Source: Alistipes sp.
GTDB lineage: Bacteria; Bacteroidota; Bacteroidia; Bacteroidales; Rikenellaceae
DNA length: 44,294 nt
Direction: 5' to 3'
Assembly: GCA_017555545.1 (NCBI GenBank)
Contig: JAFZGE010000017.1
Span: 1 to 44,294, forward strand
Shown here piece by piece: positions 2,983 to 41,184 of this stretch (positions are counted from its first letter, which is position 1; the number at the start of each line of letters is the position of its first letter). The notes under the pieces are model-generated. The model did no database searches, had not been told where the DNA came from, and saw only the letters and a program-made list of their open reading frames with translations. Both the position numbers and the translations under genes were made by a program.

Positions 2983-3684
2983 TTAGTTCTGGATCGCGAA
3001 CTTTACGGGCAATGTGAATGAAACCTTTACAGCCTTACCACGCTGCTTACCAGGCTTCCAACCCTTCTTGAGCTTGTTAGCCTCCTGAAGAACTGCGATT
3101 GTAGCATCCGAGAGAGTCTTATCGGGTGACTGAAGCACCTTGAAGTTTGTCATCTTACCATCGGGGCCTACAACGAACTGGATAACTACGTTACCCTGGA
3201 TACCGTTCTCGAGAGCGATCTGAGGATACTTAACGTGTGACTGAACCCAGTTACGGAACTCGGGAAGACCACCACCCTGGAATGTAGGCATCTCCTCTAC
3301 AGTTACGAAGATCTCCTCCTCCTCGATCTCCTCTTCCTTCTCCTCGATTACGATATCGAAGTCGTCGAAGTCATCAGCATCATCAGTAAACACGATGTTT
3401 GTCTCGATCTTCTGGTCGTTAGACACGATGTTAAGCACGTCTGTTACAACCTGTGCCTGTGCCTTCTGGGGCTGTACCTCGGGCTCAGGAATATCCTGGC
3501 GAGTGTTATCAATCTGCTCTACCTCTGTAGTCTCAGCCTTAGGAGGTGTATACTCTGCATTGATCTGTTTAGAGTGAATTGAAAGTGCGACGCCTGTTAC
3601 ACCCAAAGCGATCGCGAGACCCAAAAGCAAGAATACGATTCTGTACGATTGAAGGTTTACGTTTGGAGATTTTTTAACTTCCAT
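2983..3684 (-). CDS. tonB: Energy transducer TonB
   Basis: N-terminal MEVKKSP plus a TM helix, an acidic linker, and a TonB C-terminal domain (EEMPTFQGG, KYPQIALENGIQGNVVIQFVV, WKPGKQRGKAVKVSFTLPVKF). Confidence 0.93.
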   Translation of the reverse strand: MEVKKSPNVNLQSYRIVFLLLGLAIALGVTGVALSIHSKQINAEYTPPKAETTEVEQIDNTRQDIPEPEVQPQKAQAQVVTDVLNIVSNDQKIETNIVFTDDADDFDDFDIVIEEKEEEIEEEEIFVTVEEMPTFQGGGLPEFRNWVQSHVKYPQIALENGIQGNVVIQFVVGPDGKMTNFKVLQSPDKTLSDATIAVLQEANKLKKGWKPGKQRGKAVKVSFTLPVKFAIQN

Positions 3685-32543: not shown

Positions 32544-34589
32544 CTACAACCAACCACCGCGATCGTTGTTCTCGCGGGCGATGATGAGATACTCCTTCTC
32601 TACAATCTTACCACTCATATCGGGGACATACTCATCCTTCGGACAACCAGCATAATAACGCAGTTTTATCTTGCCGATGCCTGGTTTTCGGCAGACGAAG
32701 TAGACCTCGTGCTCTCCAAAGCGATTAACCTTATCTATGCCGAGGCGCTTCTGAGTCTCTTTGTCTATCTCAAAGTCAAGAATCTTAATGCCGAGTTTGC
32801 CATCGCTGATGGTCTCGTTGATGTTGATATAGGTGGATGTATTGAGTGATGCAGCTACTCTCTTTAAGCCGTGCATGCCCGATACTGCGTAGAGCGCATC
32901 CACCATGCCGATGCCCATCTTACCACGATAGTCATCCAACACTATCTGCGACACCTTGCCCCTATAGGTATAGACCGTTTTAGAGCCGTAAAGGCGATGG
33001 TCAATATCACTTACCGACGAGCAGATTATATCGTAGAGGTCGTCGTTCGTGAGGCGTATGCCGTGGTCTACGGCCGAGGATAGTGCCAACGCTGCAACGC
33101 CCGAGACATATGGGCACGCCATAGATGTTCCTGTCATATAGGCATAGTCTGAGCCATAGGTGGTCTTTCCATTATTGTAAACATCGGGGGTCTCGCTTGG
33201 TACGGTGGAGAGTATCGCGCCATTAGGGTTTAACACGCCATCGACATACTCAAAGTCGCCACCTGGGGCTGCGATGTTGCAACCGTAGTGGTAGTTTGTA
33301 TATCCCGTAGGCAGACCATCGGGGGCATAGGCTGATACCGATATAAATTGGTTATAGGCACCTGGGTAGCATGTATAGTTAAGACCCTCGTTACCCGCAG
33401 CAAATATTGCCACACCGCCATCCATCACCTCATTGTCGCTACACTCAACAAAATACTTAATGGCCTCAATCAACGCCTTACCCGTATTCTTCTCATATCC
33501 CGAGTCGCTAATCCACGAAAGTGGCTGACCCCACGAGCATTGCAGTATCGCAGCGCCCATATCTGCGGCATACTCGATACCTGCAGCAATTCTGGTATTG
33601 TCTGCTCCAAGACTCTCCTGAAATATCTGCACAGACATTATGCGCACGCCGTCGCCATTGCCCGAGCCTCCTGCGATGCTCGAGATACCCTCGCCATTGT
33701 TGTTTACCGCAGCAATGATGCCCGCAACATGAGTTCCGTGACCCACATCACCAGTATAGTTGCCCTCGGAGTCATATCTGCGATTATTCCACGATATATT
33801 GCCATTAAGCTCAATGGTGTTTACGCCATAGATGTCATCAATATAGCCATTGCCATCATCATCGACACCCTCAACACCATTCAACTCTGCTGTATTAGTC
33901 CACATATTGGCTGCAAGGTCGGGATGAGTGTATTTAACACCCTCGTCAACAACCGCAACTACGACCTTTGGATTTCCCGTAGCATATTTCCACGCCTCAT
34001 ATGCGTTGATATCCGCCCCCGCATAGGCGGTGCTAAATATCTCGCTACTACCCTCGTTGTGCAATCCCCATTGCAGAGGGAGCATAGGGTCGTTGAAAGG
34101 CTCACTATCCGAGCGCGTTACTGGCAGGCTCTCCACAGGCACAACATTTACCTCGGGGCGTACAAATTCCATTGCATACTCCACGCGCTCCACCTCCTTC
34201 ATCGCAGCATAACGCTGGGCAACGCTCTCCACGGGAGTATCCTCCGCAAACTCAATGACAAACCAACGGTGCATACCTCGCTCACGCTTCTTGTCGGCAT
34301 TTATAGCCATATTAAAGACGGGGCGAACACTCTCCACGCCCAACTCCGCGGCCACTGCATCCATTGCAACAACACCCGCGCGCGTGGGCGATGAGGCGTT
34401 GTGCCACGCATTGGCAGTAGCATCATCGACATAGATAATCAACTCTCCGCTTAGCGCCCCATCGGCGTTTCCAATGATTTTATTTGCGGGTTTGGTCGTG
34501 GGCGTTGGCTCAAACTTGGGGTCTTTGACGCACGACACCACCAACGCGCCACACAACACGGCGAATACTATATTATGAAATGTTCTCAT
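32544..34589 (-). CDS. S8 family (subtilisin-like) serine peptidase, lipoprotein
   Basis: Lipobox VVSC, an N-terminal prodomain, catalytic VAVVDEG, GHGTHVAG and GTSMACP, and oxyanion FAAGN. Start moved to ATG 34589. Confidence 0.94.
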   Translation of the reverse strand: MRTFHNIVFAVLCGALVVSCVKDPKFEPTPTTKPANKIIGNADGALSGELIIYVDDATANAWHNASSPTRAGVVAMDAVAAELGVESVRPVFNMAINADKKRERGMHRWFVIEFAEDTPVESVAQRYAAMKEVERVEYAMEFVRPEVNVVPVESLPVTRSDSEPFNDPMLPLQWGLHNEGSSEIFSTAYAGADINAYEAWKYATGNPKVVVAVVDEGVKYTHPDLAANMWTNTAELNGVEGVDDDGNGYIDDIYGVNTIELNGNISWNNRRYDSEGNYTGDVGHGTHVAGIIAAVNNNGEGISSIAGGSGNGDGVRIMSVQIFQESLGADNTRIAAGIEYAADMGAAILQCSWGQPLSWISDSGYEKNTGKALIEAIKYFVECSDNEVMDGGVAIFAAGNEGLNYTCYPGAYNQFISVSAYAPDGLPTGYTNYHYGCNIAAPGGDFEYVDGVLNPNGAILSTVPSETPDVYNNGKTTYGSDYAYMTGTSMACPYVSGVAALALSSAVDHGIRLTNDDLYDIICSSVSDIDHRLYGSKTVYTYRGKVSQIVLDDYRGKMGIGMVDALYAVSGMHGLKRVAASLNTSTYININETISDGKLGIKILDFEIDKETQKRLGIDKVNRFGEHEVYFVCRKPGIGKIKLRYYAGCPKDEYVPDMSGKIVEKEYLIIARENNDRGGWL

Positions 34590-34602
34590 AGACACAGATT
34601 TT

Positions 34603-36378
34603 TTACAGTGCATTTAGACACATTGCCTCGGGCGCTGGCTCCGCAGTTGGAGAGGCATTATAACCACCTTCGTAGTAGGCGAGCGCCTGGTCGTATATCT
34701 CGGCAAGGCGTGCCACATCCTCCGTAGAGGTAAGCACATTGTCGCGCGTAAAGAGATACTCCTCGGGGGATGCATAGAAGTCTACATCGCCATCCTCATC
34801 CATAACCAAAGCGTAGAGGCGACCTTTATGGTTATACTTAACCCAGAAATAGAAGTGGTTATAGGAGTAAGACTCGTGATTTCGGAGCATATCAATAATC
34901 TGCTCATCGCTCTTACCCCATGTTTCATCCTCAAAGAGGAATGTAGCGTATATCATGCGAGGCTCCTGGCTAAGGCTAACCGCGACACCTACGGCGCAAT
35001 AGTCATATAATTCATAGGACAGGTCGTAGCAATCGGCATACTTCACGGGGTCGTAGCGGTATAACGCAGTGGCATTGAACGGACCACATATCTCGACGCC
35101 CTCAATCTTGCAATCGGGCTCACGCTCTGGCTCAGTCCTGAACGGAATAGTTGTCATCTCGGATGTAGCAACCTCACCGTGGCAACCAAGACATACAACA
35201 TAATAGTCGGTGTCGGGTATAAGAGTGTAGTCCTCATAATTCGCATTGCCAAATCTGACATCATCATTCTTTACACACTGGTCAGCAATGCGTTGCTTTA
35301 ATAACTCCTTATCCCAGTCATTATACTCCGCTACAGGCATCACAACAGAGCAATATCCCTCCATATCGCTTGATGGCGTAACACCATATACCACTCTACG
35401 ACTATTAACCTCGCCAATCTCCACATCGAATGTTATATCAGAATCTTCGTAGATCGATGTGGTGAAGTATGTTGTATGCGGATATGAGACTAGCTGCACT
35501 ACACCATCTAAAACATCCATAGCATATATCACCAAGCAGTATTCGGTGTTTGCCTTAAGCTGAATACGCTTATCCTCAACATCGCCAGTAAGAGTGTTTG
35601 CCCTTAATAAAGCCTCAAGACCCTCTAAATCATTATAATTTATATAGCGTATAAATTCAAAGTGCCACAGTTGTTCGTAGTGATCAAACTGCTCGTCGGG
35701 AGTATATTTATCAATATCGTAGAACTCGTATGTGTCGTAGCCAATCTTACGCTCATAGAACGTATAGTAGTAGATACCATCCCAACCTTGTGGTTTAACA
35801 TCGAGCAAAATATCCGAGCCCATAACAGGATCTAAGGTTACATTTGTCTCGAACGACACATCCTTATTGAGTGCCGTACCCGTAGTCACAGCCTCATAAT
35901 AGACAGGCGTTGTTGCTCTAAAGTCGATTCTGTTGCCATTGGAGTAAGGCTCGAAACCAAGCACCACAATGCAATGTTGCGCGCCAGGCTGCAACATATT
36001 GCGCTCAAGTTCTATTCTACCCTTGCCACCAACATTACACTGCGTAATGAACTCTATGATATCAAGGTCATTATCACATGCATATTCAAGATATGGTTTT
36101 ACGCCAATATTCGTTAATGTAATATTTGGATCAGAAAATAAGTACTCAACCACATCCTCAATGCTATCCGATATTTGACATACTTGCGCCACATATATCA
36201 TATCCTTATCCTTGGGCGTGATGGTCGCCTTGACAGTTCCCGTGGTCACCTCCGTCACATCGATTACGAAGTCATCGCCCCTCTTGTTGGGCTGCTCCAC
36301 TCCAGGCTTATCCGTATTACACGACGCTGCAACACTCGCTATAATCAATGCCACCAGACCAAACAATACTCTTCTCAT
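34603..36378 (-). CDS. Hypothetical acidic lipoprotein with repeated beta-sandwich-like modules
   Basis: Lipobox AASC and repeated pattern F.(I/V).(V/I)..V.......(I/V)TP......Y and L.(P/A).T.Y..(V/I). ATG 36378 is preferred because the -7 box is at 36407-36414. Confidence 0.75.
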   Translation of the reverse strand: MRRVLFGLVALIIASVAASCNTDKPGVEQPNKRGDDFVIDVTEVTTGTVKATITPKDKDMIYVAQVCQISDSIEDVVEYLFSDPNITLTNIGVKPYLEYACDNDLDIIEFITQCNVGGKGRIELERNMLQPGAQHCIVVLGFEPYSNGNRIDFRATTPVYYEAVTTGTALNKDVSFETNVTLDPVMGSDILLDVKPQGWDGIYYYTFYERKIGYDTYEFYDIDKYTPDEQFDHYEQLWHFEFIRYINYNDLEGLEALLRANTLTGDVEDKRIQLKANTEYCLVIYAMDVLDGVVQLVSYPHTTYFTTSIYEDSDITFDVEIGEVNSRRVVYGVTPSSDMEGYCSVVMPVAEYNDWDKELLKQRIADQCVKNDDVRFGNANYEDYTLIPDTDYYVVCLGCHGEVATSEMTTIPFRTEPEREPDCKIEGVEICGPFNATALYRYDPVKYADCYDLSYELYDYCAVGVAVSLSQEPRMIYATFLFEDETWGKSDEQIIDMLRNHESYSYNHFYFWVKYNHKGRLYALVMDEDGDVDFYASPEEYLFTRDNVLTSTEDVARLAEIYDQALAYYEGGYNASPTAEPAPEAMCLNAL

Positions 36379-36406
36379 AACTATATATTTATTATATTTC
36401 ACTTCA

Positions 36407-36517: not shown

Positions 36518-37594
36518 CTACTTCGTTAGGCGGTGGTAGTGGCAGAGGAGAAGATTCTCGTCGTCATCGTAGAGGTGCATGCCGTTGCCCTCGCAGTATT
36601 GCCACATCTTACAGTCGGCGCACTTGCCCTTCTTCGCCCATGAGCGGTTGCGGAACTTCTCGAAGCGGTTTTGCCACACATCCCAGAAGTTATCCTTATA
36701 TATATTACCTTGCGTGAAGTTGGCACGCACGCTGGTACAGCCCGAGATATCGCCATTGACACGGATAGAGGCGGTACCCACACCTGCGTAGCACTCGAAT
36801 GGGTTGGTGCGCACACGCAACTCATAGCCTGCGAGGAAGCCCTCACAGCCGTATGCTGCCTTCACGCGACCCTCCTTGCGGCACTTCTCGATGAACTGCA
36901 TAAGGTAGGTGAACTCCTCGTTGTTTAGCTGCAGCGTGGGGTCTGTTGCGGCACGACCAACAGGGAAGATGGTGAACAATCGCCAGCGACGTACGCCGAG
37001 TGAGTAGAGGAACTCTTTGAACTCCTCAAGGCGTGGTAGAAGGGCTGGAGTCACGCATGTCACAACATCTGATGCAAGTTCCTTATCTGCCGAAATCATG
37101 CGCACAGCCTCCACGGCGCGTGCAAAGCTATCCTTATTCTGGCGGATATGGTAGTGGTGCTCCTCGAAGCCATCAAGCGAGACGGTGATAGAGTGCAAGC
37201 CCGCACGGATGAGCGAGTCGAGCCTCTGACGCGAGAGCGCCATGCCGTTAGTCACCATGCCCCAAGGGTAGCCACGGCGATATAGGTTGATGCCTATCTC
37301 CTCGAGATCCTTGCGCACGAGCACCTCGCCACCCGAGAGGATAATTAAAACCTTATGTGGGTCGACATTGGGCGTAATCTCGTTGTCCAACACGCGGAAG
37401 AAATCCTTTGCGGGCATGTCGGTGAGCGTGGTGTCCACCTTGCAGTCACTACCGCAGTGGCGGCACTGCAGGTTACAGCGAAGGGTACACTCCCAGAACA
37501 GAGTATTTAAGATGTGCTCGTCACGGCGTATCTGGCGTAGTTTTTTGAATAGCTTCAACGCCATCCACTGGCGTAGTCCAAGTCGTTTTCCCAT
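36518..37594 (-). CDS. Radical SAM/SPASM enzyme A, rSAM/lipoprotein-system type (TIGR04133-like)
   Basis: FWECTLRCNLQCRHCGS, SGGE, VTNG, SLDG, and SPASM CYAG...GDISGC...GNI...CADCKMWQYC. It sits next to TIGR04134-like lipoproteins. Confidence 0.88.
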   Translation of the reverse strand: MGKRLGLRQWMALKLFKKLRQIRRDEHILNTLFWECTLRCNLQCRHCGSDCKVDTTLTDMPAKDFFRVLDNEITPNVDPHKVLIILSGGEVLVRKDLEEIGINLYRRGYPWGMVTNGMALSRQRLDSLIRAGLHSITVSLDGFEEHHYHIRQNKDSFARAVEAVRMISADKELASDVVTCVTPALLPRLEEFKEFLYSLGVRRWRLFTIFPVGRAATDPTLQLNNEEFTYLMQFIEKCRKEGRVKAAYGCEGFLAGYELRVRTNPFECYAGVGTASIRVNGDISGCTSVRANFTQGNIYKDNFWDVWQNRFEKFRNRSWAKKGKCADCKMWQYCEGNGMHLYDDDENLLLCHYHRLTK

Positions 37595-37600
37595 AGTATC

Positions 37601-37786
37601 TTATTCGTTTTGTATTTCGTTGTTAACCTCCTCTGCGAGTGCCTCCTCAGCTGGCGCTTTCTCGCTATACTCCTCATGTAGGGGTGCATAGGCAGGTGCG
37701 GGGTATATCTGCTGGTCGCCCTCGGGCTCGCAACTTACGAATGTATAGCCTAACGCTACTAATCCAAAGAGTATCAATCGTTTCAT
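37601..37786 (-). CDS. 61-aa lipopeptide, candidate rSAM substrate
   Basis: MKRLILFGLVALGYTFVSC signal/lipobox, IYPAPAYAPL motif and an acidic tail. It fills the gap between the two rSAM genes (19- and 6-nt spacers). Confidence 0.8.
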   Translation of the reverse strand: MKRLILFGLVALGYTFVSCEPEGDQQIYPAPAYAPLHEEYSEKAPAEEALAEEVNNEIQNE

Positions 37787-37805
37787 AGTTCGTATCGTTT
37801 AAGGT

Positions 37806-38834
37806 TTATAAATCTAATACGGGGTCGGCAATGTCGAATGTGCCGTATAGCTGCTCCGAGGCTGCACGACAGCCTCCACGACAGCGCTGCCAGAGGTCGC
37901 ACTGGGCGCATCGCTCGGGCGTGGTGTCATAGATGCCATCATCGGTTGTGCGCCTGAGGATATCCTCGAGGTGCTCCTTGTGGATGTTTCCCAATACGCG
38001 TGGCGAGTGGTTGCAGAAGCGCACATCGCCGCGGTAGTTGATGGTCAAGGGGCGCGACTTGAGATCCGTTGTGCAATGCGTGAAGGTGATGTTGGGGTAA
38101 TCTGAGGGCGTGAGCACGCACATAGGTGTGCAGACGCCATTGTGGGCACGCATGCCCAGCTCGCCAAGTTTAGCGTTAGCACGGCGGAAGGCATCGCGCA
38201 ACTCGGCATGCGAGAGCGTTAGCTCTGCGGCGTACTTACGACCCAAACCACCGATATTAAAGCGGTTAAGCATTATTCTTTTGACCCCCATCGCGGCATA
38301 CATCTCCAGTGTAGACTCTATATCCGCCACATTCAGGCGGCTAAGGATAAAGACGGGCGTCAGCCAAGCGGGGTCGATGTCGGTTATACGCTTGGCACTC
38401 GCCATGGCGCGCTCCCATGAGCCCGCAAGCTGCGTTATGTGGTCGTGCACCTCCGCGCGGTCGGAGAGCAGCGGTATCTGCACTACGCCAACGCCAAGGT
38501 CTCTAATAATGTTGATGTCTTCTGCCTTGAGAAGTGTGCCGTTAGTCAGCAGGTTGACATTCGAGCCACCAATGCGCGCCTTGAGTATAAGGTCGTGGAT
38601 GCGGGGCATAAGCATCGGCTCGCCACCCGAGAACGATATGCTCGAGATATTGGCCTCGCGCTGCAAGCGTTTTAGCGTGCGGCGTGCCATGCGGAAGTCG
38701 GGCGCAGCAACGGGGCAAGGCTCTGCTCCACCCTTAAAGTGGTTGTAGCAGAACCTGCACGCCTGGTTACAGGCATCCGTGAGCTCGAAGACCATAAAGC
38801 CGAGCTCCATCTTTTTGCGTCGCGAGAAAAACAT
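37806..38834 (-). CDS. Radical SAM/SPASM enzyme B
   Basis: FELTDACNQACRFCYN, FSGGEP, LTNG, and SPASM C...GDVRFC...GNI...CAQCDLWQRCRGGC. Confidence 0.9.
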   Translation of the reverse strand: MFFSRRKKMELGFMVFELTDACNQACRFCYNHFKGGAEPCPVAAPDFRMARRTLKRLQREANISSISFSGGEPMLMPRIHDLILKARIGGSNVNLLTNGTLLKAEDINIIRDLGVGVVQIPLLSDRAEVHDHITQLAGSWERAMASAKRITDIDPAWLTPVFILSRLNVADIESTLEMYAAMGVKRIMLNRFNIGGLGRKYAAELTLSHAELRDAFRRANAKLGELGMRAHNGVCTPMCVLTPSDYPNITFTHCTTDLKSRPLTINYRGDVRFCNHSPRVLGNIHKEHLEDILRRTTDDGIYDTTPERCAQCDLWQRCRGGCRAASEQLYGTFDIADPVLDL

Positions 38835-38837
38835 AGG

Positions 38838-39350
38838 TTAATCTACAATAGAGACAAAGACGGAGTGTGGTGTCGAGTGCTCCTCTCCCTCATAATTCAC
38901 ATACTCCACGCACAACTTCGCCCTACCACGATAGTCGCCAGCATTAATTGTGAAAGATAGTAGGTTATCGCCATGCTCCACATTATACATCTCACTGCAA
39001 AGCACCCGATCCTCATCGTTGTCATCGCTTATCAACGATATTGTCACCTCCTCGCCAAACTCACACACATATTTAAGAACTACAATATCTCCATTGCGAA
39101 GCTCGCTATTGGCTACATTATTATTCCATCTGTGATAGTTAGATGGCGGGGGTGCAGGGTCGTAGCATGATGTCATAAATCCACCACCCTCGCAGGCTGT
39201 CGATGCCAATGCCGTAAGGCCAATCAGCATACCGCCAAGGCGATATTTTAAGCTTGTTGCGCGCTTACTTCTGCCACCGCTAAGGATAAGCCACAACGAC
39301 ACAGCTACGAATGCCATGCTAAGCGCTACTATAAGTATTGTTCGTTTCAT
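38838..39350 (-). CDS. Membrane-anchored hypothetical protein with TSCYDPAPPP motif, candidate substrate of rSAM B
   Basis: Two N-terminal hydrophobic segments, the second ending in lipobox-like STAC, then a Cys-Tyr-Pro-rich motif and a beta-rich domain. It ends 3 nt before rSAM B. Confidence 0.75.
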   Translation of the reverse strand: MKRTILIVALSMAFVAVSLWLILSGGRSKRATSLKYRLGGMLIGLTALASTACEGGGFMTSCYDPAPPPSNYHRWNNNVANSELRNGDIVVLKYVCEFGEEVTISLISDDNDEDRVLCSEMYNVEHGDNLLSFTINAGDYRGRAKLCVEYVNYEGEEHSTPHSVFVSIVD

Positions 39351-39389
39351 AGTGTTAGATTTTTCCGTTATTGAAAGGATGACGCATGT

Positions 39390-39749
39390 TTACTCCTCGC
39401 TGTTTACGCGCGTGAGTTCTATATCGCCGAGTTCGATTTGTGTGCCCGGTTCGCCAAAGGTGAATGACCTTTTTTCGAAGTCGCCACCATTAGCCTCGCC
39501 ATCGGTATCGGTCAATGCCAGCCAGGGCCTAGTGCCATAGATGTGGAAGCGGCCATTCTCATCCGTAGTGGTTCTGTTCTCGCCACAACGCGCCTCGATG
39601 CCCTCGATGGGCGTGCCACTCTCATCGACAACACGACCCGAAGCACCGAACTCCGCATTAAACTCAGTGTACTCAACGCCATAGCATGCGACGCATGTTA
39701 GCGTCATGCCAAATAGCGCAAATAGTCGTACTAATAGTTTGCCAGTCAT
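39390..39749 (-). CDS. rSAM-associated putative lipoprotein, paralog 4 (TIGR04134-like)
   Basis: Signal ending CVAC-YG, plus VVDESGTPIEGI and DTDGEANGGDF blocks. Confidence 0.85.
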   Translation of the reverse strand: MTGKLLVRLFALFGMTLTCVACYGVEYTEFNAEFGASGRVVDESGTPIEGIEARCGENRTTTDENGRFHIYGTRPWLALTDTDGEANGGDFEKRSFTFGEPGTQIELGDIELTRVNSEE

Positions 39750-39766
39750 AGTATTAAATTTTTAAT

Positions 39767-39805
39767 TGTCATTGCGAGGAATTGCGTGCAATTCCGTGGC
39801 AATCT
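39767..39805. repeat. REP-like palindromic element
   Basis: tgtcattgcgag-gaattgc-gt-gcaattc-cgtggcaatct resembles the widespread GTCATTGCGAG...GCAATC extragenic palindrome. Confidence 0.6.
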
Positions 39806-39813
39806 ACCTTTTG

Positions 39814-40269
39814 CTACTCCTCGGGAGTATCAGTGTTCTCCTCGCTCTTCTCCTTGAGCTTCATGGTCACAGTGCCCATATCGGCGGTGTAGGCGCCTTC
39901 GTACCAGTTACCATCGCCCTCCTCGGTCTGTATGAGGTTCTCAATCTTCACGGTGAGCGTCTCGAACTCACCGCCATTGGCCTCGCCATCGACATCGATA
40001 AACTGCATCTTTTGGTTTTGAGCACCAGGCCAGAAGTATCCGCCATAGGCATCGATATTACCCTCGTAGTCCGAGAAGCCAGTATTATACTCGAAGCGTC
40101 CACCATCCTCGGTGCGCACTTCGATACCCTGGATGGGGTTGCCCGCCTCATCCACAACACGCGCCTTGAGCGAGAAGCTAACAGTGGGACAACCATACTC
40201 CACCATACCAAAATGGTCGCAGCTTGCAAAGCCAAGCATAGCCATTAGTAGATATATAAGTCGTTTCAT
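39814..40269 (-). CDS. rSAM-associated putative lipoprotein, paralog 3 (TIGR04134-like)
   Basis: LGFASC lipobox, MVEYGCP, VVDEAGNPIQGI, DVDGEANGGEF and GDGNWYEG. Confidence 0.88.
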   Translation of the reverse strand: MKRLIYLLMAMLGFASCDHFGMVEYGCPTVSFSLKARVVDEAGNPIQGIEVRTEDGGRFEYNTGFSDYEGNIDAYGGYFWPGAQNQKMQFIDVDGEANGGEFETLTVKIENLIQTEEGDGNWYEGAYTADMGTVTMKLKEKSEENTDTPEE

Positions 40270-40272
40270 AGT

Positions 40273-40695
40273 TTATAGGTTTTTAAGTTTCATAGTTACC
40301 TTGCCGACGTTGACAACAGCGCTACCAACATATCCCCACTCGTCGGGCTTGTTGTTGATGCCTGTGAGCTGATCGCGGATATCAACAGTTACACTCTCAT
40401 ACTCGCCACCATTGTAGTCGCCATCAACATCCTCGAATACCACCTTGTGCAACTTATTGGGGTTGATGTGCACAAAGCCATAGTCTATTATGCCCTGATA
40501 GTCACTATATCCCGAGCGGCCATAGAAGGCGCTGCCCTCGGGGTATGAGTAGATGCCTTGTATTGGGTTACCCTCCTCATCGACAACCTCTGCGCAGAAG
40601 CTGAGCACATAGTATGGCTCACGCTTAGGCTCCTTCTCGCACGATGATAGCGCAAAGCTGCACACCACCATCGCCAACAGTATTAATCGTTTCAT
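40273..40695 (-). CDS. rSAM-associated putative lipoprotein, paralog 2
   Basis: LSSC lipobox, EPYY, VVDEEGNPIQGI and DVDGDYNGGEY. Confidence 0.85.
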   Translation of the reverse strand: MKRLILLAMVVCSFALSSCEKEPKREPYYVLSFCAEVVDEEGNPIQGIYSYPEGSAFYGRSGYSDYQGIIDYGFVHINPNKLHKVVFEDVDGDYNGGEYESVTVDIRDQLTGINNKPDEWGYVGSAVVNVGKVTMKLKNL

Positions 40696-40716
40696 TGCTG
40701 TACCTTATATATATTA

Positions 40717-41097
40717 TTACTTCTTCTCCAGTTTTACATCGACCACAAGGGTGTCTCCGTCTCTATGCTTCTCAGCCCGGCTCATATTGAGGTGCTTCTC
40801 TTCGAACTCACCGCCATTCTCCTCGCCATCGACATCCTTGAACTTCATCAACTGGATATCATCCTCCCACGACACTATGCAGTCGCCATTCTCATCGGTG
40901 TAACCAGCAGGCTCGACACTACCATTATATCCCGCCGAAACCTCGATGCCCTTGATAGCATTACCATCCTCATCCACTACATGAGCCTTGAGCTTCGTAG
41001 GTTTAGGGAGCAGTGGTGCATACATAGGCATGGGCTCATTAATAGAGGAGCAACTGAAACCGAGCGCCGCCAAAAACAGGTAAACTATCTTTTTCAT
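40717..41097 (-). CDS. rSAM-associated putative lipoprotein, paralog 1
   Basis: LGFSC lipobox, PMPMYAPL, VVDEDGNAIKGI and DVDGEENGGEF. ATG 41097 is preferred. Confidence 0.85.
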   Translation of the reverse strand: MKKIVYLFLAALGFSCSSINEPMPMYAPLLPKPTKLKAHVVDEDGNAIKGIEVSAGYNGSVEPAGYTDENGDCIVSWEDDIQLMKFKDVDGEENGGEFEEKHLNMSRAEKHRDGDTLVVDVKLEKK

Positions 41098-41152: not shown

Positions 41153-41184
41153 CAAATTTACGAAACAATATAGCCGTTACCAAA
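41153..41184 (-). promoter_or_regulatory. Promoter of the rSAM/lipoprotein operon
   Basis: TTTG (41181-41184), 20-nt spacer, TAAATTTG (41153-41160). Confidence 0.7.

Follow-up and report, generated by a model that had tools for sequence, protein, structure and literature searches.

We analyzed an operon of eight genes on the minus strand of a 44,294-nucleotide (nt) stretch of Alistipes sp. DNA (contig JAFZGE010000017.1, assembly GCA_017555545.1; the whole stretch is called the window here) that encodes two radical S-adenosylmethionine (rSAM) enzymes, rSAM A and rSAM B. Judging from the sequences and their conserved neighborhoods, we propose with moderate confidence that the operon consists of two separable enzyme-substrate modules joined in a lineage-restricted merger, and that each enzyme would modify exported proteins at a conserved tyrosine before export. 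This departs from the sequence-only reading of the window, which saw one expanded two-enzyme system with six shared substrates: rSAM B and the SCYDP protein encoded beside it form a cassette of their own, mostly found with no rSAM A nearby. It also draws on features which that reading had not named, namely, an X-Tyr-Gly motif in the partners of rSAM A, a Cys-Tyr (CY) motif in the partners of rSAM B, and the relationship of rSAM A to the spliceases. Passages of PMC11414181 (and of PMC11626197, PMC9811515, PMC10849128, PMC10533398, PMC11002830, and PMC10885120) describe these as enzymes of the rSAM/SPASM type that remove tyramine at XYG sites.

A Tyr-Gly site in the lipoprotein partners of rSAM A

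rSAM A (36518..37594) matches TIGR04133, a family named in the sequence-only reading, at 572.6 bits (cut-off, 425). Such enzymes are common: of 201 genomes of this bacterial family, 86 have a match over the cut-off, as does Bacteroides thetaiotaomicron in the control set. In all 32 loci considered—the 30 best-scoring TIGR04133 loci and two annotated plasmid records, from Treponema and Parabacteroides—the gene directly upstream encodes a lipoprotein-like protein with X-Tyr-Gly located 1 to 40 residues past the lipobox cysteine, a descriptive count weakened by the loci being mostly from one genus and not independent. As background, among 158 other lipoprotein-like open reading frames (ORFs) of the genome, YG within 45 residues occurs in 15, and Y[GA]xP or Y[GA]P in none. 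The partners are otherwise unlike one another, ranging from unstructured peptides of 73 amino acids (aa) to proteins of 280 aa, many of them 73 to 110 aa long and without a domain. Their signal peptides carry an L-L-G-F-type motif in 28 of 32 cases compared to 7 of the 158 other ORFs; although this pattern was picked after the partners had been inspected, it fits a signal peptide that doubles as leader, a role already proposed for it. Editing of the substrates before Sec export, claimed at the same time, probably holds as well, with both Lgt and LspA genes present in the genome.

The commonest site in Alistipes, V/L-M-Y-G-V, is close to MYGVV of PlpA3 and PcpA, given as proven splice sites in part of the PMC11414181 supplement, and is also found in the partner (LMYGVP) at a second TIGR04133 locus of this genome. 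The enzyme gene there (G000:C57:15610-17054), 64% identical to rSAM A, lies downstream of a gene for a 111-aa lipoprotein that has no domain and reads LMYGVPFP; such a two-gene form is usual in the genus.

Within the operon, lp3 (39814..40269) is the sole lipoprotein over the TIGR04134 cut-off (87.4 bits; cut-off, 39.8) and provides the TIGR04134 member expected of TIGR04133 loci. lp1 (40717..41097), lp2 (40273..40695), and lp4 (39390..39749) fall short of it (36.8, 32.1, and 29.6 bits) even though BLAST shows them to be homologous to lp3 and to one another. The E-Y-G-C-P site of lp3 (Tyr25, at 40192-40200) is modeled in a low-confidence linker (predicted local distance difference test [pLDDT], 62 to 63) ahead of a transthyretin-like β-sandwich, and lp3-type proteins of related operons have YG in 24 of 24 cases. 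The site of lp4 is C-Y-G (residues 22 to 24, at 39678-39686), in which X is the predicted lipid-anchor cysteine; its 19 orthologs have YG (17) or YA (2), and two relatives read C-Y-A. lp1 carries a Gly-to-Ala variant, M-Y-A-P (Tyr26), where its closest ortholog (locus L001) has MYGP, and the 61-aa lipopeptide (37601..37786) carries A-Y-A-P (Tyr33), with five YG and three YA among eight orthologs. In lp2, of the same fold family as lp1, lp3, and lp4, YG is absent ahead of the domain; none of its 12 orthologs has YG, one has a distal YA, and the signal motif is present in only 2 of the 12.

On these motifs, lp3 and lp4 appear to be the best candidate substrates of rSAM A, lp1 and the 61-aa lipopeptide being Tyr-Ala variants of uncertain activity, whereas lp2 is probably a non-substrate paralog, since the target motif is missing in all 12 orthologs. 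The idea of six candidate lipoprotein substrates therefore survives in part: the partners are probably substrates, but lp2 lacks a target and SCYDP is not a paralog of the lipoproteins. Fold searches with the carrier domains returned generic β-sandwiches that give no function, with the SusC N-terminal extension among the top matches of lp3. An invariant acidic loop, D-x-D-G-x-x-N-G-G, runs through the alignment of lp1 to lp4 (D92-G100 of lp3) and is possibly a metal (Ca) site.

Relationship of rSAM A to the splicease families

In a maximum-likelihood (ML) tree of 46 rows, TIGR04133 groups with a TIGR04103 member, with GDL/DUF1843 enzymes, and with enzymes from Agathobacter and Tropicibacter (support, 98/99), and the grouping appears again (96/94) in an ML tree of a set thinned to 22 rows, from which the two longest branches had been removed. 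The TIGR04103 member is a Nostoc enzyme scoring 853 bits against that family, which we take to be the same as IPR026482. PlpX is assigned to IPR026482 in a passage of PMC11002830. Most of the splicease-family enzymes in this clade have as neighbors peptides with LYG, PYG, MYG, LYA, MYA, or MYM. In the Agathobacter rectalis record (L063), an unannotated 35-aa ORF with VMYG lies just upstream of position 3531, directly before the splicease-clade rSAM gene. A PDB sequence search with rSAM A returned distant rSAMs only and no splicease structure.

Because every upstream partner has X-Tyr-Gly and both trees place rSAM A together with the splicease families, we predict tyramine excision (splicing) as its likely chemistry. 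Divergent TIGR04133-like enzymes near or under the cut-off (336 to 446 bits; G092:C12, G021:C3, G049:C35, G131:C17, G222:C143, G374:C27, G265:C20, and G234:C145) are possibly subfamilies with other partners.

A Cys-Tyr protein upstream of rSAM B

rSAM B (37806..38834), with its radical SAM and SPASM domains, belongs to a Bacteroidales family that has no name. It passes no NCBIfam family cut-off, its best hidden Markov models (HMMs) being GeoRSP (103.7 bits; cut-off, 400) and PqqE (88.6; 381); for MftC it scores 48 (265). Its 22% identity to rSAM A bears out the earlier remark that the two enzymes are very different. The remark that their SPASM cysteines are intact needs refining: both have a SPASM domain, but neither motif is canonical. 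rSAM A (C250, 268, 286, 325, 328, 334, and 351 in the SPASM region) is without the fourth Cys of CX2CX5CX3C, and rSAM B, with eight conserved cysteines (C235, 239, 254, 274, 309, 312, 318, and 322), is without the terminal one. rSAM B has an N-R-F stretch in common with MftC and a C-terminal GGC...DP pattern in common with PqqE and MftC, and no splicease tryptophan pattern. ESM Atlas searches with rSAM B and SCYDP returned unnamed Bacteroidota clusters only. Among 300 phylum-sample genomes there was no rSAM B ortholog outside Bacteroidales; one distant match (8.6e-66) had no CY neighbor in the flanks fetched.

The SCYDP protein (38838..39350) consists of a hairpin leader (residues 2-51), a lipobox-like Cys53, the pair Cys62-Tyr63 (39162-39167), and an immunoglobulin (Ig)-like domain; its structural model shows a two-helix hairpin (2-23 and 29-51), a flexible linker that holds the CY site, and an Ig-like fold of generic type. 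Its best BLAST match to the operon lipoproteins, to lp3, has an E value of 0.3. Against NF058595 (lipo-invert tail) it scores 15.4 bits (cut-off, 37), and 2 of 18 relatives match at 15-16 bits.

The gene immediately upstream of rSAM B encodes a CY protein at all 23 close loci that retain upstream DNA (L024 is cut off there), at all 17 loci of a family sample of 200 genomes, and at 16 of the 20 loci of an order sample of 300 genomes, three locus sets that partly overlap; CY[DE] occurs in 7 of 790 long ORFs as background. The four order-level misses comprise a contig edge, an enzyme fragment, an unrelated neighbor, and a genome with two CY proteins on another contig. Met1, Cys62, and Tyr63 alone are invariant across 42 CY partners, with Phe14, Lys35, and Gly39 of the leader nearly so. 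The partners are without X-Y-G, and the residue after C-Y is in most cases D, E, A, or K. The remainder varies: in other genomes there is no C-terminal part, or a TonB C-terminal domain takes its place, with TIGR01352 matched by 5 of 18 partners scanned, 4 of them over the cut-off. As the lipobox Cys is absent from some partners, lipidation is not their constant feature. Based on this conservation, SCYDP is likely a candidate substrate of rSAM B, modified at the invariant Cys62-Tyr63.

Several of these proteins deserve mention in their own right. TonB C-terminal-domain proteins with a hairpin leader and at least one CY motif lie directly upstream of rSAM B in L074, L080, L081, L082, L084, and L092. 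Three others (L079:3069-3617, L083:421-981, and L085:937-1497) have a signal that is cleavable but has no lipobox, with Gln next after it, and carry another CY site at the extreme C terminus (NTCYY or NTCYF). At L131 (G374:C13, ~117270-119300), seven hairpin-leader CY proteins, six of them shorter than 100 aa, are encoded in tandem, with rSAM B on another contig; the arrangement resembles an array of precursors that are modified in trans.

Of 300 genomes of the order, 13 were matched by a profile of the CY partners, and every one of these carries rSAM B or fragments of it, a co-occurrence that is partly circular, since the profile was built from B-linked proteins including the CY columns; the profile also found unlinked copies and the seven-gene CY array. 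Cofolding of rSAM B with SCYDP residues 1-76 scored 0.51 (best of three controls, 0.06), with contact agreement between runs of at least 62% and a partner pLDDT of at least 65. In calibration, 116 of 157 solved pairs and 2 of 215 mismatched ones reached the mark, yet scores at or below 0.60 included only 18 solved pairs along with both mismatches, so that the predicted complex, computed for rSAM B with SCYDP only, lends weak support to the pairing. The circularity of the profile and the restriction of cofolding to this one pair both weigh against our reading of the second module.

Separation and proposed merger of the two modules

Of 24 close Alistipes loci, 19 have rSAM B next to rSAM A (4 do not, 1 is incomplete), as do 1 of 17 family-wide loci and none of 20 order-wide genomes; 6 of these 20 genomes have no TIGR04133 match over the cut-off. 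In joint operons, the SCYDP and rSAM B genes remain neighbors, whereas the positions of the lipoprotein genes around them vary. We conclude that the joint operon probably arose as a local merger, because the rSAM B cassette occurs mostly without an adjacent rSAM A and remains intact while the lipoproteins move. The survey of gene neighborhoods proposed earlier thus tied rSAM A to its upstream lipoproteins, as expected, but found rSAM B mostly apart from rSAM A and with a CY partner of its own.

Weighing the alternatives

Several observations tell against splicing by rSAM A. The trees included uncharacterized splicease-family members and not PlpX or RhaX themselves, rSAM A is joined to the splicease families by a long branch, and no clear YG precursor was found among the neighbors of the Tropicibacter clade member. 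Identity to splicease-family proteins is only ~25-28%, one SPASM cysteine kept in splicease-family rows is missing while Cys250 is extra, and the raw HMM scores for TIGR04053 (117.8 bits) and the AhbD/NirJ families (101-103) exceed that for TIGR04103, rSAM A being below the cut-offs of the named splicease models (TIGR04103, 93.4 against 725; TIGR03913, 91.7 against 591.75). The long branch, the cysteine pattern, and the higher TIGR04053 and AhbD scores, as well as the natural YA sites in the operon, would suit modules as proposed in which rSAM A performs other tyrosine chemistry at Y-G, such as crosslinking, epimerization, or oxidation. We regard this as rather improbable, since the YG motif and the tree position independently agree on splicing, and YA and YM variants are also seen in DUF1843 precursors beside splicease-family enzymes. 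For rSAM B, our first choice, a tentative one, is a thioether between the Cys sulfur and a Tyr carbon, favored because Cys and Tyr are both invariant and because local motifs are shared with MftC and PqqE, both of which act on peptide Tyr. Against this, rSAM B might be a divergent Gly-independent splicease acting at Cys-Tyr or an anSME-like enzyme converting Cys to formylglycine, a pair of options that we find unlikely when taken as one. Splicing is the less doubtful of the two: an approximately unbiased (AU) test did not reject rSAM B within the splicease clade (P = 0.278), which counts against keeping it apart, and the site layout parallels that of module 1 (leader helix, lipobox, and Tyr in a Pro-rich linker), but both free trees place rSAM B outside that clade—on long-branch, unsupported joins to PqqE or MftC that were flagged unreliable—and the N-R-F and GGC...DP motifs are not those of spliceases. 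Formylglycine formation seems improbable; the auxiliary clusters of anSME are saturated by cysteine, as the eight SPASM-region cysteines of rSAM B could allow, yet the partner is no sulfatase and its CYDP does not match the anSME motif CxPxR. Outcomes beyond these three are about as doubtful as Gly-independent splicing.

A different objection is that the operon might encode one integrated pathway, with rSAM A and rSAM B acting in sequence or sharing all six proteins. The single promoter, the tight gaps, and the retention of the joint operon in most close loci despite shuffled gene order would fit such a pathway, as would the C-Y-G of lp4 and the C-Y-A of its two relatives, which fit both motifs; the presence of CY and YG in lp4 is a point against two clean modules, and there may be cross talk between them through this site. 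We nevertheless consider full integration quite unlikely, because at 16 of the 17 family loci and in all 20 order genomes rSAM B and its CY partner have no rSAM A next to them, two of the six genomes without TIGR04133 are single-contig assemblies, and C-Y-G partners are found beside TIGR04133 without rSAM B in the flanks fetched (L053, L054, L057, and L060). Least probable of all, in our view, is that the partners are accessory or regulatory membrane proteins and that the enzymes act on small molecules, a reading to which the raw HMM lists lend something, heme and cofactor rSAM families scoring as high as peptide maturases. Leader and Tyr motif are all that the partners have in common, and the domain attached to them may be absent, transthyretin-like, Ig-like, or TonB C-terminal, which is a precursor pattern; tandem arrays of short motif-bearing peptides exist.

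Operon layout and surroundings

The eight co-oriented genes run in the order lp1-lp2-lp3-lp4-SCYDP-rSAM B-61-aa lipopeptide-rSAM A, with gaps of 21, 3, 64, 39, 3, 19, and 6 nt, which agrees with the layout first described. The consensus promoter was recovered too, as a minus-strand match at 41153..41184 (TTTG, 20 nt, TAAATTTG) to the −33/−7 consensus that we take to be of the Bacteroidota type, whereas a generic σ70 scan gave 5 sites against 6.4 expected, none above chance. The gene divergent from this promoter is presumably ispG-like. As noted earlier, the operon contains no PqqD, transporter, or peptidase gene; domain matches of both enzymes are to Radical_SAM and SPASM only, and neither has an RRE domain. 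An unlinked, stand-alone PqqD-family gene lies on contig C98 (G000:C98:14880-15098) and might have a role in trans.

The 61-aa gene is optional: a contig of sequencing run X9 joins across window positions 37596-37812, pointing to a strain without it, and consistent with this, several related loci lack the gene. After the operon, on the same strand (32544-36402), follow genes for a 599-aa lipoprotein without a family and a subtilase (S8) lipoprotein; the latter (32544-34613) was considered as a conserved target and rejected, as the downstream genes listed for related loci did not include it. The nearest relatives are Alistipes and Tidjanibacter metagenome-assembled genomes (MAGs), many of them placed in the ruminant gut by record titles; three distant matches at 26-28% identity (L025-L027) were dropped as unrelated. 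Metatranscriptome contigs from two runs of one study cover 28 and 21 of 30 bins, the first missing only the two flanking bins, which the DNA runs cover; these contigs, which show neither strand, level, nor a single transcript and were compared with no silent control stretch, were not counted as evidence.

Discussion

We picture the two modules as follows. In module 1, rSAM A would act in the cytoplasm, binding the unprocessed lipoprotein at its L-L-G-F-type signal helix and cutting out tyramine at X-Tyr-Gly (−135.07 Da). The product would then pass through Sec, Lgt, and LspA and end up anchored in the membrane with a ketoamide electrophile. In module 2, rSAM B would recognize the extended hairpin signal of SCYDP and act on the invariant Cys-Tyr, possibly by hydrogen abstraction at Tyr Cβ and capture by the neighboring thiol to give a −2-Da thioether. 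More speculatively, and with real doubt on our part, rSAM B may found an undescribed class of protein modification across Bacteroidales, in which a hairpin signal peptide serves as built-in leader and new radical chemistry takes place at Cys-Tyr of exported proteins, including those with TonB C-terminal domains.

If rSAM A splices, backbone splicing extends to membrane-anchored proteins; spliced ketoamides are known protease inhibitors, according to a passage of PMC11626197. rSAM B, for its part, belongs to a family that has no name but whose candidate site is sharply defined, which makes new radical chemistry directly testable. The operon is also a good test bed for signal-peptide-encoded enzyme specificity, because it holds both enzyme-partner pairs along with internal controls: a paralog without the motif, two Tyr-Ala variants, and a CYG site compatible with either motif.

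The TIGR04133/TIGR04134 families are widespread in gut Bacteroidales and are named but functionally unassigned in the literature we searched, although the likely chemistry itself is known. Searches for TIGR04133 gave no paper and those for TIGR04134 only an irrelevant context of type IX secretion system (T9SS) domains; nothing joined splicease with lipoprotein, and Scott et al. 2022 (Chem), reportedly a broad splicease survey, lay outside the reach of our search. Passages citing Scott et al. 2022 speak of 27 characterized and 939 predicted splicease systems, and module 1 may already be covered there. Literature searches likewise found no paper on module 2, on a SPASM rSAM modifying a lipoprotein tyrosine in Bacteroid* taxa, or on a Cys-Tyr crosslink made by such an enzyme.

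Compared to the usual TIGR04133/TIGR04134 pair, whose families are NCBIfam hypothetical equivalogs, the operon is alike in its members rSAM A and lp3 and differs in having four paralogs (lp1, lp2, and lp4 under the cut-off), a short lipopeptide, and the inserted, unrelated rSAM B cassette. Module 1 resembles the spliceases (PlpXY-PlpA, PcpXY-PcpA, binary RhaX-RhaA, RcsX, and RasX) in its rSAM/SPASM enzyme, its X-Y-G partners, and its place in a clade with TIGR04103 and GDL/DUF1843 enzymes. It is closest in layout to the binary spliceases, as it has no Y or RRE gene; these are described in part of PMC11414181 as requiring no Y protein and as being activated by a leader helix. Unlike the Nif11 or DUF1843 peptides of spliceases, its partners are Sec lipoproteins with folded domains; the modest identity and differing SPASM cysteine pattern of rSAM A set it further apart. 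rSAM B is like PqqE, MftC, and GeoRSP in its best HMM scores (GeoRSP and PqqE) and in the local motifs of MftC and PqqE, and unlike them in lying far under their cut-offs, in having no PqqD in the cassette, and in having an exported protein as partner. For the proposed thioether, the link in enteropeptin joins neighboring residues. A passage of PMC13361665 describes that peptide as a thiomorpholine sactipeptide, and one of PMC13692751 reports that SPASM enzymes crosslink Cys in proteins, as in QhpD-QhpC and CrpC-CrpA. QhpD and CrpC both work with an RRE, and the crosslink made by QhpD runs from Cys to Asp or Glu, whereas rSAM B has no RRE and the invariant second residue of its partners is Tyr.

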